From assembly GCA_000697335.1 (NCBI GenBank), contig JNEM01010440.1:1-56933 (forward strand): 56,933 bases of DNA, read 5' to 3'. The position numbers and the translations under genes are program-made. Origin of the DNA: Conidiobolus incongruus B7586 (lineage: Eukaryota). Below, one piece after another: positions 14,996 through 56,933 of this stretch. Numbering within the stretch: position 1 is the first letter of the stretch; each line of letters opens with the position of its first letter. The notes beneath the pieces are model-generated. The model saw only the letters and a list, made by a program, of their open reading frames with translations, was not told the origin of the DNA and searched no databases.

Positions 14996-15068
14996 CACCC
15001 CTACTGGGGATCGAACCCAGAATCCCCGGATTAGAAGTCCGATGCCTTATCCATTGGGCCATAGGGGC
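14996..15068 (-). tRNA. tRNA-Arg, anticodon UCU, intronless
   Basis: Minus strand reads GCCCCTATGGCCCAATGGATAAGGCATCGGACTTCTAATCCGGGGATTCTGGGTTCGATCCCCAGTAGGGGTG. Acceptor stem GCCCCTA/TAGGGGT, anticodon arm TCGGA-CT TCT AA-TCCGG, T-arm CTGGG-TTCGATC-CCCAG; a T-run Pol III terminator lies just downstream. Confidence 0.97.
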
Positions 15069-15474: not shown

Positions 15475-15900
15475 ATGTCTTCAGTAAGTCAATATAAATA
15501 TTAATTTTACTTAAATATTAATTGTGCTATAGTTTGAACCTGTTAATCCCAAGCCCTTTTTACAAAGTTTAATAGGAGAAACAGTTAATGTAAAATTAAA
15601 GTGGGGTACTGAATATAAGGGAACTTTACAATCCGTTGATTCTTATATGAACATTCATGTAATTTATTAATTTCAAGAACAATATATTTTTACTTATTAA
15701 TATTTTAATATAGTTAATTCAAGCTGTTGAATACGTCGATGGAACTTACGCTGGTACTTTGGGTGAAATTCTTATCAGGTTATTTATATTCTTATATTTA
15801 ATATAGTCATTTTTATTAATTTGATTTTAGATGTAATAATGTTCTCTATTTGAGAGGTGCACAAGGAGAAGACGAAGAAAAACAAAATGAAGAAGATTAA
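15475..15900 (+). CDS. SMX3: Small nuclear ribonucleoprotein Sm F (absent from ORF track)
   Basis: Exons 15475-15483, 15533-15658, 15714-15778, 15831-15900 give [102 protein letters not shown] and IRCNNVLY are diagnostic of SmF. Confidence 0.95.
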
Positions 15901-16028: not shown

Positions 16029-16794
16029 TTATTTACATTTATTCAGGTTTTCAAATCTTGTTTGTTTTAAATTATCAACTAAATAACCGATTTCTAAATT
16101 TTTCAATTCCAAGTAGTTGTTTGGGGAGAGTAACAGGTATGAGTGGTTCCTAAGTAATTGAGCAAGTTCATAAGTTATCAAGTGATACTTTTCTCATTTT
16201 AAATTCACAGTAATCGTCTTCTTAATCAAACCATCAATCTTGGGAATAAAATTGCCTTTTTGATTATTGATCCAAAATCTCTTAGAAATAGTCCCTAGTT
16301 TATTACTATTACTTTGACTCATTCCATCATACTCTTCCATCTCTGCCACATTCTTTGGATGATATTGCAAGTCATGGAGAATAGGCTTGTAGTTAGCGAT
16401 TAATTAGCAATAAATTTAAAAATTTTCATATATTTGCTAGGTGACCATAGTTTACCGTCTGTCCATCTTTGAATTCCCTCCACATTACTTACAATCGAAT
16501 CTGCATCGTTCGCTTTGAATACGAATACACAGACTCCAGCTATTTCATTCCTTTAAGATTCTTTTAACCTTGACGTGATCATTGGCAATTTGGATTGAAT
16601 ACATCCTTCTTTATAGTTCATAAGTATTGCATTCTCAAATCTAAGTAATATTTTATTTACCAATTACTCTTGAAGCATCTTCATAATTCTTAATAAATCC
16701 TAATCAACATTAAATTATATATTGAATATACATAAATAAACCTTAATAGAATAAGTCCCAAAATACCTTCAGTAATATTTTGTTTAATATTCAT
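16029..16794 (-). pseudogene. Gti1/Pac2 (WOPR domain; Wor1/Ryp1/Mit1 family) transcription factor pseudogene
   Basis: Removing introns 16766-16700 and 16660-16609 gives MNIKQNITEGFIKNYEDASRVIEGCIQSKLPMITSRLKES*RNEIAGVCVFVFK...EGIQRWTDGKLWSPSK. After a 1-nt frameshift it continues NF*IYC*L...FIPKIDGLIKKTITVNLK*EKYHLITY...SPNNYLELKNLEI. Both WOPR boxes are recognisable; there are four in-frame stops and one frameshift. Confidence 0.88.
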
Positions 16795-19648: not shown

Positions 19649-20377
19649 TTAGCACATACCACCAAATCTCATATTCATCATCATGCATTTTTGGCTTTGT
19701 TGAATGCATTTTTGAGCGCAAGTTTGAATCAAACGCTGGAGCTCGCAAGCTTGACGAAGGTTATCGCACATCATACGGTAGTTCATGGTACAGTTGGAAG
19801 CTTGATTGATGCATTGACGGCATTGTTGCATTAATTGGATCATTTCCATCATATCGCGATGCATTTCACGGCACAACATACACTCACAGCTCATCATCTT
19901 GTTCTGGTTCATGGATTCACACATCATTTGGATCATACGGCACATTTGATCCTTTTCGATGCGGCATTGCTCCAAGCATTGCTGGGCCATCATAGGGTTG
20001 GTCATGCACTGGGCGAGCATGGTGCTCCATTGGTTGCAACGCTGGGCAACCATGGCCATCATGCTACAAATTCTCTGACGCATCATGCCAAAATTGTTGG
20101 TCATCATTCCATTCCAAGCCATATTGTTCATCATCATAGAGTTTTGCATGTTTCCGTGCATATCGCATGAGCAGATACCAGTCATAGCACAGTTACAACC
20201 AGCACAACCACAGCACATTGAGCCCATTGTTCCAGTCATGGACATAGGACCAAAGCTCATCATAGGGGACATAGGACCACAGTTCATCATAGGGGACATA
20301 GGACCACAGTTCATCATAGGAGACATGGGGGTAGAGCAATTCATCATGGGAGACATGTTTCCGCAGTTGTTCATCAT
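19649..20377 (-). CDS. Orphan Met/Cys-rich protein (242 aa; 57 Met, 30 Cys by hand count), intronless, no signal peptide
   Basis: Long ORF forming a GC-rich island in very AT-rich DNA. AAAAATG start context, TATAAATA about 75 nt upstream, TAA stop. Differences between repeat units are often synonymous in this frame (CCT/CCC, TCC/TCT, AAC/AAT, TGT/TGC). Confidence 0.88.
   Translation of the reverse strand: MMNNCGNMSPMMNCSTPMSPMMNCGPMSPMMNCGPMSPMMSFGPMSMTGTMGSMCCGCAGCNCAMTGICSCDMHGNMQNSMMMNNMAWNGMMTNNFGMMRQRICSMMAMVAQRCNQWSTMLAQCMTNPMMAQQCLEQCRIEKDQMCRMIQMMCESMNQNKMMSCECMLCREMHRDMMEMIQLMQQCRQCINQASNCTMNYRMMCDNLRQACELQRLIQTCAQKCIQQSQKCMMMNMRFGGMC
20240..20377 (-). repeat. Coding tandem repeat, 27-30 nt unit, ~5 copies encoding MMNCGPMSP-like units
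   Basis: The plus-strand unit ggacataggaccacagttcatcatagg occurs in two near-identical copies plus three degenerate copies. Confidence 0.9.
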
Positions 20378-20450
20378 TTTTGATAGCTTAAAATTGTTGA
20401 TTCAAATTAATATCAGTTATTATGAATTGAAGGCTGAGATCAAGTTTGAG

Positions 20451-20458
20451 TATTTATA
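20451..20458 (-). promoter_or_regulatory. TATA box of the Met/Cys-rich gene
   Basis: Plus-strand tatttata = TATAAATA on the minus strand, ~75 nt upstream of the ATG. The same motif precedes the Sis1 and 50946 genes. AT-rich background lowers specificity. Confidence 0.5.
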
Positions 20459-22089
20459 ATAACAGAAATGGTGCTAATTTAAAAACCAAGTTAGGCAAAT
20501 CTCGAAATGGAAAATGAATATGTATCCTTATACATTCATCAATTGAATAACACAAATAGACTTTTCCACAATTAATCTGAATATGTATTGACAAGTGAGG
20601 GGGTTTTATCTATAATCTTTATCCCAATCTAATTAATGGATATTGACTGATTAATTAAGTACCCTTTATTGAATAAGGAAATTATATCACAATTGATATT
20701 GAAATTTAGCTTGTTTAATAGTTAGACACGTCATCAACTTTGGATTAATATTTTCCCCTTGTTGATAAGATTTTCATATAACTTGAATAACTTTGACATT
20801 TGAATATTATAGATGTAAAATTCCACTAATATTCATTTTGAGGACTAATTTATTAAATCAATTATCAAATATTGCATAGATTACAAGTTAATGAAAATAT
20901 GCAATAATAACTCAATTAATTTAGAAATTAAAATATAATTTTATAATATCAATTACTATAATATTAAATTTATATTACTTAAACTAAAAAAAGGATTTTA
21001 AACAAATTGAAATTTTTTATTAAAAATAATTCGCTCAACAATTGACTGACTTTAAAGGATAAATTATCATTATATTATGAAATATTCTTTGATAAATATT
21101 ATAAACCTAATTTCATAATTTCTAAGCCATTAAAATATAAAGAAGTCAATGTTCTTTATGTAATTGTTTTTATAAAAATAGCATGATATATATATATTTG
21201 TATAAAATTTTGAAAGTTAAAATTTGTTTTCAAAACCAGAATTTGTGAATCAGATGATATTAATATATTAGTTGGAAACAAAGTTTGACCTTCTTAATAA
21301 ATTGGATTATTAATTGAATGATATCTTTATAATCCAGCTATATGTTTTAAAATGTATATATGTATTTATATATTAATTAGTTTGTATTTTAAGCCTCTCA
21401 GCTATTATTTATATATAATTCATAAATTTAAGAATGTACTGATTTCGTCATTTATATCAATTTATTTTATCAATCAGTTAAGCTTTTTTTTAAATTTTAT
21501 TACTTTAAATTATCAGGAATATTCTTAAATTTTTTTTTCATTTAATAATTAAAATTTAATATTTTGATATTTGATTAACCTTTTATAATTAAATATAGCT
21601 TTAATTTTTAAAGAAATTATATCAATATATAATAGAATAATTCATATTAATAACCAAATATCTATGCTAATTATTAAGTAGAAATAATTTGAAAATATTT
21701 TATATGTCGAAATTATAATCATTTTTAAGTGGCTTTTTAATATTCTTAAAACTTGAGTTATTAAAATAATGGTTATTCAATTGATTAATAACTTCAAGTT
21801 GAGTTTAGTCTATCTACTATGAATAATATAACTACGATATATATATATATTATTCAATCTTTGAAAAAATTGATTTATTTTAAATATCAATTGTAATAAT
21901 ATCACATTTTTATCAATATTACACAATATAATCTATATAAATCAAGTGGAAAACTATAGTTTAGATCTTTTTAGTATAGATATAATGAATAATATCTTTT
22001 TTCTATAAAAATTTTATAAAAATATTTTTCAAATAATACTCTAATTTGTGGTTTAATTTATGGCAACAAAATTTAAAAATATCAGTGTT

Positions 22090-22123: not shown

Positions 22124-24643
22124 AAAGTATAAATTTAAACATTTTTTTAATTTATTAATTAAAATTTTGAACGTTATTTTATAATAGACCAATCATGATA
22201 ATATAAATATCATTAAATTTTAGTTTTTAAAAGATCTTTTTTTTCATTAATATCAGAGTATTAAAAAATCACACGAACTTGTATAATGATATCTTTTAGA
22301 AAACTAAATATTTTAATATAATTGGTGTTCCTTGTGAAATTATTATATTAATGAAAAAATTAGTAAAGACAGAAATACATATATTATTGGAATGTATTAA
22401 TTTGTATCAAGATATCATTATATCCAAACCCCAATTATTGATAATTTATTATTATAGTTTAATTATATCTAATAATAAATAATAAATTTTATCAAAAACC
22501 ATTATCTTAAATACAGAATTATACACATATATATTATCAGTGTTATAATACTATTCAGTCATCCCTATTTATATTTGATGAGAATAATTATTTTTAATTC
22601 TTTTAAAAATTAAAATTTCATAAATTATAGATATTTTGAAAATAATCATCTTTGAAGTATATAATGTCAATAAGTAACTCTGATATATGTATGATTTTCG
22701 GAAATATATATAATGAAAACAAAAATAATATATTACTAATTATAATATATCTTTAACAGATAATCCTTCAATATATATATATATATATATATTTCAAATA
22801 TTATGGATAAGAATATAAGAATATGATTTAATATTATATAATAATTTTTTAAAATATAAAATGTTATCGAATATAAGGTTGATGAAACTCAATATCAAAA
22901 CTTATAAATATTTAATATATAATATATGTGTAGATAATTTTCTATTTTTACCTTAAATACTTTGATTTCTATTATAAATTATAAAAAATAAAGACAAGAA
23001 ATTCAAGTAAAAGATAAAAAGAACTCTATCTTCAATTAATATAAAACTTATATAAATAATATATTTTATCTTTTCAAAGTTTAATATCTCTTTTTTACAT
23101 ATATAACTCATATAAGTCATCTGGGAATGGTAAGAATGAAATAATTCCCACAAAGTTCTTAGCTAAGCCTAGCCCAAGTTTATTCCAGTTTCGAAAAGTG
23201 TCTAATTCAGGTGTTCTTATATTTGATGACCATTCAGAATGCCATATTTTTGTTACTTTTATTAAAAAGTTACCACTCCCTTGAAAAGATAGCTGTGTAC
23301 ATAAAATGATTTTCTAATCTACGAATAAAATAGATTGTTATCACTGTGAGAAATGAAAAATATTGGTAAACAAAATGTATTAATAAAAATTTCTATTTTA
23401 TAATTTTATTTTGAAAAAACAATTACACTTTTATAGTCAAATTCAATTATTGTTAATTTTTTATGCATTATTTTTTTCAATATTGATAATTCTCATATAT
23501 ATTTACTTTAGGGTTGTGATTTTTATGATAAAAATTTTATAGCCAAGAGTAAAATTTAAATTTATTATTATAATATATATATATATGTGTGTGTGTGTGA
23601 TAATACCAATGAATTATCAGTGACCATTTGGAAGCAAATATAACCAAATCCAATTATCACATATTTAATTTGAAAAATAATCAATTCAAATTATTAATAT
23701 AACTAATGTAAATATAGTTTAAATTTTGATAGAGATAAATAATTTAATTTATATAAAGATTAATTTTAATATTTTTTTAAAATATATTAATAGAATAATA
23801 ATTATACTTTATGATATTCAAACACAATTATTTCATATTTTTATCAGTAATTTAAATTATGAAATATTTAAGTAAAAATAGTGTTTAAGTTGCAAGTTTT
23901 TGATAAAGTTAATTATAGAATAAATTTATAATAACAATAGTTAATCAATTTTTCTATATATTATAAGATCTTGTGGTATTACATTTGATTATTCAAATAT
24001 ATTGGTCAAATTAGAATTTGGAAAAATTGATTGATATTTTTTGAAGATTAAATTGAGTATATTATGTGAAAAAAAGTTAAAAATAATAGCTGAAACAAAA
24101 CCAAGTACCTTTTTTATGACGTTTTCATCATTTTTATACAAATAAACTCAATTCGATCACAAATTATCCTTTACTCATTGTTTAATGGACTGTCACTAAG
24201 TGTTTAAACAGTAGTTAAGTATAATCCAGTTAGGTTAGTTTTATCTATGGACATTTTATATCATAATAAAAGCAATTGTATTTTTTGATAAACATCTCAA
24301 GATGATTAAAGAATCATTTTTAATTATAATCATTTGATAATAAATTTATTAAGTCAAAATCCTTATCTAAAACTTTTTGATTAGTATTTGATCCATACAT
24401 AGATTAAATTATCATTATTTGTGATTATATGGTATATATTATCTGTTTTGACTAATGCTAAAACATTACATAATTCTAAACTGATTTATATCATTTGAAA
24501 GACATTTTTAGGACCTGGATTTTATCGATAACCCATAATAATATTTTATCATCATTCTATGCAAACATGAATTATATAATATAATATTACAACTTAATCA
24601 ATTTTAATTTTATAAAAAAATTTGGGTTAAGAGATTTTAAATA

Positions 24644-55777: not shown

Positions 55778-56933
55778 ACTTATTTGATTAAAAAAATAAT
55801 TTTTTAAAATTAGTTGTTTAATTTAATTATATTTAAACTAATTAGTAATTATCAAAAGTTTTTTATTTTAGTATTAATAAAACTTAACCATAAATCTTTT
55901 AAAATCATTTAAAATTTATAAGCAACTTTTAATAATAAAATATTATTTAAATTAACAATTTATCACTAAGTAAATTACTTTAAAATTAAAAAAAATTACC
56001 TAAAACCTATTAAAATCTAAAAAACTAATTTCAACTATTATTTTTTTAATTGTTAATAAAGTAAAAAAATATATTAAAAAGTACCTTTTTATTTCAGCTA
56101 AAAAATTATTAAGATACTTTAATATTAGTTACATAAGTATTTTATATAAATTAAAATTTAAAATTAATTAATAAAAATGTAAAATAAATATCTTATAATT
56201 TAACTAAAACTTAAAAAAAAGTTAGAATAGCTATTATTAAATAAAACTTATTAAGGTATAATTAAAAACCAAGGCTTTTACAGTAAATTATTATAATTAA
56301 TAAATCTTAGATTTTTTTGTATAATCTTTTATTAAAACATAAATCAAAGTTTTAAATTAAGTTAAATCAACCCCTTTTATAAATTTCTTTAAATAAACAT
56401 TTTATTAATAAGTGAATGTTAATTATTATAATAAATTATAATAGCATATATAATTCTTATTTAGTTTTTAAAAGAAAATTAATTAATAATAAACTTTATA
56501 TTTTTTTAAATAAAACTATTTTTAATTAGTATTCTTAATATAATTTGAGAAAATCTATTATTTTATATGATAATTATAAAATATATAAATCTAAAGTTAT
56601 AAAAAACTTTTTAATTAAAAATAACTAGAAAAAACTACTATATCTAATATATTCTTTAGGTTATAACTTATGTAATTATAATTGTTTTAGGTAATTAAAA
56701 AACTAGTTTACAAGAAAGAAAATTTTTATAAAAAAATTTAATTAGTTTATAAAATATTAAATTTCAGTCTTTAATAAAAAAAATTATTTTTTAGGTATTA
56801 GATTTTTGTTAAAAATATAGTAAAAAATTATTAGAAATAAAAGAAATTATTAATTTTATATTATATATTTATTTTTACTTTTTATATATTAAAATGTTTA
56901 TTTTTTTTTTAATCACAAAAAATTCTTATTATT
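55775..56933. repeat. Degenerate AT-rich dispersed repeat, right copy; 56208-56933 is homologous to 1-683
   Basis: Colinear similarity to the left window end. The same CpA/TpG-poor composition extends back to about the (TA)n tract; the left boundary is approximate. Confidence 0.8.

Follow-up and report, generated by a model that had tools for sequence, protein, structure and literature searches.

The window analysed here, a stretch of 56,933 nucleotides from Conidiobolus incongruus B7586 (contig JNEM01010440.1 of assembly GCA_000697335.1, positions 1 to 56,933), encodes on its minus strand (19649–20377) a protein of 242 amino acids (27.6 kDa, pI 8.2) with 57 methionines (23.6%) and 30 cysteines (12.4%), together 36% of all residues, in which sulfur accounts for 10.1% of the mass. 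As judged from the sequence, the open reading frame (ORF) is very probably a genuine gene with high expression, and the Met/Cys protein is probably abundant and cytosolic. Our preferred interpretation, put forward tentatively, is that it serves as a reserve of sulfur amino acids in the cytosol and that a box of seven cysteines probably also binds Cu(I), be it as a side role or as a second one. Of the functions that we infer, this one is favoured over that of a Cu(I) store. No described family fits the protein; its architecture is new, each of the proposed roles being known from elsewhere.

An earlier note on this DNA, also made from the sequence, had described an intronless ORF of this length with these numbers of methionines and cysteines. 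The counts were confirmed, and there is no AT-rich dip inside the ORF: its GC content is between 0.35 and 0.58 in every 60-nt window and falls only in the flanks (0.10–0.32), which argues against an AT-rich intron. At the ATG the GC content steps up from about 0.23 to 0.47, and at the stop codon it drops back to 0.22. The remaining five frames over the ORF contain 3–36 stops, and only 6 of 5000 base shuffles of the ORF had a stop-free run of at least 200 codons. For comparison, Met contributes 1.0–3.1% and Cys 0.2–1.3% of the residues encoded by 8 other genes of the window. Leu (2.9%), Val (0.4%) and Phe (1.2%) are scarce in the Met/Cys protein, which has two His and, as aromatic residues, three Phe, two Trp and one Tyr. 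The nitrogen content is 1.38 per residue, which is about ordinary for proteins and from which many storage proteins differ. A hydropathy scan (not SignalP) found neither a signal peptide nor a membrane segment (best 19-residue average 1.18, best N-terminal 11-mer 0.37) and thus bears out what the earlier note had said on this point.

The codon bias of the ORF is the strongest among the 9 window genes compared, above even that of the Hsp40 gene. Four-fold degenerate codons end in a pyrimidine in 60 of 67 cases (0.90), versus 1368 of 1972 in the other genes pooled (Fisher p = 2e-4), and two-fold codons end in C in 43 of 68 cases versus 456 of 1328 (p = 3e-6); Asn, for example, is encoded by AAC 17 times out of 23. 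Because this codon use opposes the bias towards AT seen in non-coding DNA (about 20% GC in the window) and exceeds that of the Hsp40 gene, it points to selection for efficient translation and to high abundance. It is very unlikely that the ORF is non-functional, i.e., a repeat-derived or silent frame, or that a His-rich antisense frame is the true gene. Such an interpretation could appeal to the lack of homologs in the collections searched, to the fact that the ORF runs counter to every conserved neighbour and lies in a gap with a pseudogene, and to the low recognition by a language model (1436), but it is opposed by the optimal codons used against the mutational AT bias, by the sharp GC steps at both start and stop, by the 3 stops that interrupt the in-register antisense frame, by the confinement of the tandem repeats to aa 1–50 and by the amphipathic character of the helices. 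Two antisense frames, one rich in His (19835–20170, plus strand) and one with Ile/Gly/Pro repeats (20079–20459, plus strand), were dismissed as shadows of the ATG codons and of the 27-nt repeat; neither has a Pfam match.

The nearest intact genes are those for an Sm/LSm protein, ending near 15900, and for V-ATPase G, starting near 24.7 kb. The gap between them is 8.8 kb, in agreement with the roughly 8 kb without other intact genes reported earlier, but it is not empty, since it holds a broken Gti1/Pac2 gene (Table 1). A six-frame coding scan of the window likewise agrees that this is the sole intact protein gene on the minus strand, on which the tRNA-Arg gene also lies. There is no second copy of the ORF and no Msr gene within the window, and no gene of sulfur metabolism or copper handling in the neighbourhood; the word "system" in the earlier note overstates what is one gene without a linked partner. 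The ten other recognisable protein genes, between 3050 and 51875, are all on the plus strand. If each gene were oriented independently, the chance of this would be about 1 in 500. This bias may reflect co-directional gene runs in the lineage, of which a literature search found no report. A short coding-like remnant at 23095–23330 (minus strand) has no Pfam match and no significant similarity to the WOPR pseudogene. The two ends of the window (3–683 and 56210–56933) form an AT-rich direct repeat of about 700 nt (74% identical, E = 8e-121), possibly a dispersed repeat or a transposon end.

Table 1. Features of the Met/Cys gene and of the window around it (aa, residues of the Met/Cys protein; distances are from its ATG)
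Feature	Position	Strand	Remarks
Uncharged Met/Pro/Asn/Gly repeat tail, aa 1–54	20216..20377	-	18 Met, 4 Cys; five 27–30-nt copies
7-Cys box, aa 55–71	20165..20215	-	C-[CxC]-x2-[CxC]-x5-[CxC]; copper-thionein-like
Met/Asn-rich, almost uncharged linker, aa 72–100	20078..20164	-	10 Met in aa 73–100, no Cys
Four amphipathic helices, predicted up-down bundle, aa 93–237	19667..20101	-	low-confidence model, pLDDT ~55
TATAAA, candidate TATA box	20453..20458	-	81 nt before ATG
TGACGT, CRE-like bZIP site, weak candidate	20728..20733	-	-356
Broken Gti1/Pac2 (WOPR) transcription-factor gene	16029..16720	-	Pfam E = 7.7e-8; in-frame stops, frame change; inside 8.8-kb gap
tRNA-Arg(TCT)	14996..15068	-	only RNA gene found in window
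Plus-strand genes of window		+	RINGv ligase, Mak21/CBF, Sm/LSm, V-ATPase G, Hsp40
Plus-strand genes of window, rest		+	ARID/Swi1-like, CDK-like kinase, Ste12, SMC, unnamed 309-aa ORF

A homology search, which had been proposed with the earlier note, found no relative and no match to a characterised family in the collections searched. Pfam gave three weak rows (best E = 0.08) and NCBIfam one (E = 0.055), PHROGs gave no match, and none was found among PDB sequences at E ≤ 10. In a word-index search none of 90 candidates of 133–424 aa reached E ≤ 1e-3 and none of 38 candidates of 30–132 aa reached E ≤ 10, and the ESM Atlas had no usable match for the whole protein or for aa 93–242. Pattern scans of mostly prokaryotic collections returned three metagenome stretches, one viral stretch and no genome, none of them confirmed, and tblastn of plasmids and phages, again mostly prokaryotic collections, returned nothing. 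With phmmer two matches were obtained among 1,835,955,588 representatives of all lengths (E ≤ 0.001), and both were rejected on reading as tandem-repeat artefacts. The earlier statement that no known fungal family is recognisable has thus stood up in Pfam, NCBIfam, phmmer, word-index and ESM Atlas searches, and the Met/Cys protein is an orphan in the collections searched, where its lineage is thinly sampled. The Hsp40 of the window shares 77% identity with the Conidiobolus coronatus protein and 54% with its counterparts from Entomophthora muscae and Neoconidiobolus thromboides, which marks the host as Conidiobolus-like. An exact copy of this Hsp40 or of the Met/Cys protein was not found in the collection, so that the proteome of the host itself is probably missing from it. 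Since C. coronatus proteins were covered by the collection searched, an ortholog in this species is absent, unannotated or too diverged. Divergence beyond detection is plausible, because even the Hsp40 is only 77% identical and because the composition correction is large (the Met/Cys protein scores itself at 510 bits with a bias of 95). The open-access literature yielded, in titles and abstracts, no report of a comparable protein in Conidiobolus or other fungi, and a review that deals with the sulfur sources of fungi (PMC5857272, cited in part) does not mention one.

All three modules that had been distinguished in the protein, Met-rich repeats, a Cys cluster and a helical Cys/Met domain, are present, together with a fourth, the Met/Asn-rich linker, that had gone unnamed. 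CGP repeats occur in the protein, and the tail is predicted to be disordered. Over aa 1–100 there are only 2 charged residues, and 6 MxxM and 9 MM motifs are found. Three CxC within 18 residues arose in 293 of 20,000 shuffles and seven Cys within 17 residues in 2181 of 20,000; the order of the 7-Cys box exceeds chance via its CxC pairs, the density of Cys alone being not unusual, and the description of the cluster as metallothionein-like holds to this extent. For aa 93–237, two single-sequence AlphaFold2 runs predicted four long helices with low pLDDT (45.3 and 54.5). Because 27 Met and 18 Cys make up 45 of the 69 non-polar residues (65%) of aa 101–237, the core of any bundle would be largely sulfur. 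Polar residues lie on one face of each helix (p 0.004–0.049 at 100 degrees, with the helix bounds taken from the model), and the mean Cys direction is 135–206 degrees away from this face on all four helices. Neither Met (p 0.06–0.99 per helix at 100 degrees) nor Cys (p 0.12–0.82) has a significant helical face of its own on any helix, and internal repeats in the bundle are not significant (119 of 1000 shuffles). Fold searches led to generic up-down bundles (Z 12.6, rmsd 4.6 Å, 148 residues aligned; Z 12.2, rmsd 2.8 Å, 118 aligned), the best Z of 12.2–12.6 being, by the tool's own statement, within the range common for helical bundles. Foldseek, likewise proposed earlier, found no match at E ≤ 0.001 with the low-confidence models, and Csp was absent among the 50 matches listed in each of four fold searches, which leaves room for the Csp fold.

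A possible and only somewhat less probable function is that of a high-capacity cytosolic store for Cu(I) or another soft metal, a convergent fungal counterpart of the bacterial copper storage protein Csp3, in which the tail would gather Cu(I), the box would hold a Cu5S7-type cluster and the thiolate- and thioether-lined bundle would be filled as in Csp3. Like Csp3 and Csp1 (PF03860; PDB 5FIG, 5ARM, 6ZIF), the Met/Cys protein lacks a signal, is probably cytosolic and has a predicted four-helix bundle with 18 Cys and a sulfur-lined core, the number of Cys being 18 in MtCsp3 and 19 in BsCsp3 (PMC5171941, cited in part). Furthermore, Met serves as a ligand in the core of RkCsp3 (PMC10155185, cited in part), and BsCsp3 has a role in sporulation (PMC9484137, cited in part). 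The direction of the bundle Cys away from the polar faces and the MxxM and MM motifs of the first 100 residues would also suit a Cu(I) store, as would the arrangement of Cys in three layers about 10 residues apart on an idealised bundle, although this layering is not significant (equalled in 147–177 of 2000 shuffles) and becomes weaker under register shifts. In contrast to Csp, the protein is eukaryotic, has no His motif and carries a 100-residue Met-rich tail with the 7-Cys box; its bundle is longer (about 140 versus 107 aa) and richer in Met (20% versus a mean of 5% and a maximum of 6.7% in 83 Csp3), and its Cys are mostly 7–10 rather than 3–4 residues apart.

Sequence comparison speaks against membership in the Csp family. 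From 142 loci 140 Csp3 sequences were extracted, and a profile HMM was made from the 83 unique ones; of the control Csp3 genes two were confirmed by Pfam PF03860 (54.8 and 46.8 bits, the curated cut-off of this DUF326 profile being 20.4 bits) and one by a PDB match. PF03860 itself did not match the Met/Cys protein at E ≤ 10. The Csp3 HMM gave −9.3 bits with aa 93–242 and −15.6 bits with the reversed sequence, 13 of 500 shuffles reaching the former value, and with bias correction off 37.1 versus 34.9 bits; the hhalign probability was 0.2%. The mean pairwise score of the bundle against Csp3 was 61.3 versus 47.1 in shuffles, of which 2 of 200 reached it. This small excess would be explained by helical periodicity rather than by descent, with room for a very remote homology. 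Of the 17 gaps between Cys in the bundle, only 4 measure 3 or 4 residues, versus 78% in the 83 Csp3, and the autocorrelation z of Cys is −0.1 (lag 3) and −0.2 (lag 4) versus +2.1 and +3.1. On these grounds the Met/Cys protein is not a Csp member. It may be added that PF03860 was found in none of 151 genomes of one bacterial phylum and that 58 of 129 pattern-matched viral-contig stretches from IMG/VR encode a Csp3-like copper storage protein.

The box also speaks for a Cu(I) store. The fungal Cu-thionein unit X2-[CXC]-X5-[CXC]-X3-[CXC]-X2-C-X3 binds five Cu(I) (PMC4755600, cited in part), and the 17-residue box has the same inventory of three CxC and one Cys as the Cu-thioneins from Neurospora (MT), Cryptococcus (CnMT1/2) and Tremella (TmMT), with small residues spacing the Cys. 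It differs in the order and the spacers of the Cys and in being present only once. The protein as a whole is also unlike these thioneins, which consist of about 22–25% Cys, mostly in CXC, and contain no aromatic residues; TmMT, for example, has 57 Cys in 257 residues, 48 of them in CXC (cited in part). The Met/Cys protein has 12.4% Cys with 8 of 30 in its four CxC pairs, contains six aromatic residues and is predicted to have a helical domain.

The upstream DNA was scanned for 18 motifs, which are consensus sites of ascomycete and animal regulators. The earlier note had credited the gene with its own TATA box; a TATAAA is indeed present at −81, but alone it proves little, because the motif is common in AT-rich non-coding DNA (7.7 per kb in that of the window). 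The TGACGT site, picked post hoc as one of the 18 motifs tried, occurs twice in about 29 kb of non-coding background including the copy at −356. In 1.2 kb upstream there are no Mac1, MRE or Zap1 motifs, which are yeast or animal consensus sites and may not fit the lineage, and one Ace1-like site versus 0.59 expected, this yeast motif being subject to the same reservation. Full CYS3/MetR, Cbf1 or Met31 sites (ascomycete motifs) and a Yap1 or AP-1 consensus (from ascomycetes and animals) are likewise missing upstream, where two weak STRE-like sites are found; these motifs too may not fit the lineage. A perfect bacterial sigma-70 consensus (12/12) at 20588–20616 (plus strand), upstream of the Met/Cys gene but facing away from it, is probably a chance match, the total number of sigma-70 sites being at chance level (12 versus 10.6 expected).

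The earlier note had left it between a cytosolic metal or sulfur store and an antioxidant. What stands of this is a sulfur-saturated orphan that is probably abundant and cytosolic, and the tests lean to a sulfur reserve over a Csp-like store. The reserve is favoured, firstly, because it would need abundance and the codon bias ranks at the top; secondly, because Met replaces the ordinary hydrophobic residues in tail, linker and core alike, Leu, Val and Phe being nearly gone; and thirdly, because the ordered sulfur sites expected of a ligand model are found in the 7-Cys box and not in the rest. Indeed, Met has no significant helical face while the polar residues have one, 57 Met are far above the needs of ligand geometry, and the extreme Met content needs explaining because Met forms no disulfides. 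Over a Csp-like store the reserve is preferred because the bundle Cys do not have the i+3/i+4 spacing of Csp3 and because no copper-response motif is enriched upstream; the presence of only two His also favours it.

A precedent is found in plants, where delta-zein deposits accumulate in proportion to the sulfur supply (PMC4227475, cited in part). Delta-zeins and 2S albumins resemble the Met/Cys protein in extreme Met (and Cys) contents, in Met/Pro/Ser repeats and in signs of high expression. They enter the endoplasmic reticulum and form protein bodies derived from it, however, whereas the Met/Cys protein lacks a signal peptide, and no zein, prolamin or 2S albumin Pfam profile matched it at E ≤ 10. 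The reserve would be filled in times of ample sulfur; in times of shortage it would yield Met and Cys again, presumably by proteolysis. With Met and Cys in place of a Leu/Val/Phe core, the predicted four-helix bundle would form a compact soluble package with buried thiols; the uncharged Met/Asn-rich first 100 residues would remain disordered, and this N-terminal half may allow packing into cytosolic deposits, conceivably in conidia, resting spores or other storage stages.

Several findings fit less well with a sulfur reserve. There is neither a sulfur-metabolism gene nearby nor a full sulfur-regulatory site upstream, the 7-Cys box is ordered beyond chance, which a pure reserve would not need, and the similarity to Csp3 is slightly above that of shuffles. 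High codon bias would equally fit an inducible metal sink, the nitrogen content is not that of many storage proteins, the fold model is of low confidence, and there is a single orphan gene. A bolder version, which we consider doubtful, is that of a cytosolic protein devoted to sulfur storage that arose de novo in one lineage of fungi, with a Met/Cys-cored bundle, a self-packing tail and a copper-thionein box, and that would stock spores with both sulfur and copper.

It is improbable that the protein is a sacrificial antioxidant, the exposed Met and Cys of which would absorb H2O2 or HOCl, for example from host immune cells, and would be recycled via methionine sulfoxide reductases and thioredoxin. 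The 28 Met in the predicted-disordered segments aa 1–54 and 73–100 would indeed be solvent-exposed, the CRE-like and STRE-like sites upstream would be weakly in line with a stress response, and there is a precedent in MrpX, the hypochlorite scavenger of Azospira suillum, which has a Met-rich soluble region open to oxidation (PMC4436054, cited in part). But MrpX is periplasmic and belongs to a regulon with a methionine sulfoxide reductase (same source, cited in part), neither of which is seen for the Met/Cys protein, and the missing Yap1 and AP-1 sites also speak against this function. Moreover, oxidation would be expected to destabilise a folded Met-cored bundle.

Slightly less probable still is a structural or condensate-forming protein, in which the Met/Asn/Gly/Pro half would polymerise in a redox-sensitive manner and the Cys would cross-link it in dormant spores. 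Yeast Pbp1 is such a Met-rich redox-sensitive polymer. The near absence of charge from aa 1–100 and the CGP repeats are consistent with this, and Cys-rich low-complexity classes of eukaryotes are mostly structural (bioRxiv 10.1101/2023.07.24.550260, cited in part). However, the Met saturation of the folded bundle would be left unexplained, the cytosol is reducing, and a wall protein would require an export signal.

There are also four CX9C spacings in the protein (112 of 5000 shuffles), a CCxC motif and, at aa 117–124, one import-like motif of the form aromatic-x2-hydrophobic2-x2-Cys (449 of 5000 shuffles), as these motifs are generally defined. They could indicate a CX9C protein imported via Mia40 into the mitochondrial intermembrane space, such as a Cox17/CHCH-like copper chaperone. 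This is the least probable of the functions considered: no CHCH or COX17 Pfam profile matched, both low-confidence models place C104 and C124 on one long helix and not in a hairpin, and CHCH/Cox17-like proteins are far smaller and less rich in Met.

Eukaryotes store copper in unstructured metallothioneins (PMC5171941, cited in part). If the protein were a Cu(I) store, a eukaryote would have a folded store for copper akin to Csp, something of which no description was found in the literature searched. If the bolder version were true, the protein would parallel the zeins of seeds as a fungal, non-secretory counterpart and would have converged, in a eukaryote, on the bundle of the Csp type. With 24% Met, a protein that is soluble and does not come from a plant is in addition of interest for the engineering of feed and food proteins. 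In fungi, small molecules, among them glutathione and choline sulfate, are regarded as the form in which spare sulfur is kept; a cytosolic protein with high expression and with sulfur as one-tenth of its mass would extend the fungal sulfur economy by a store made of protein.
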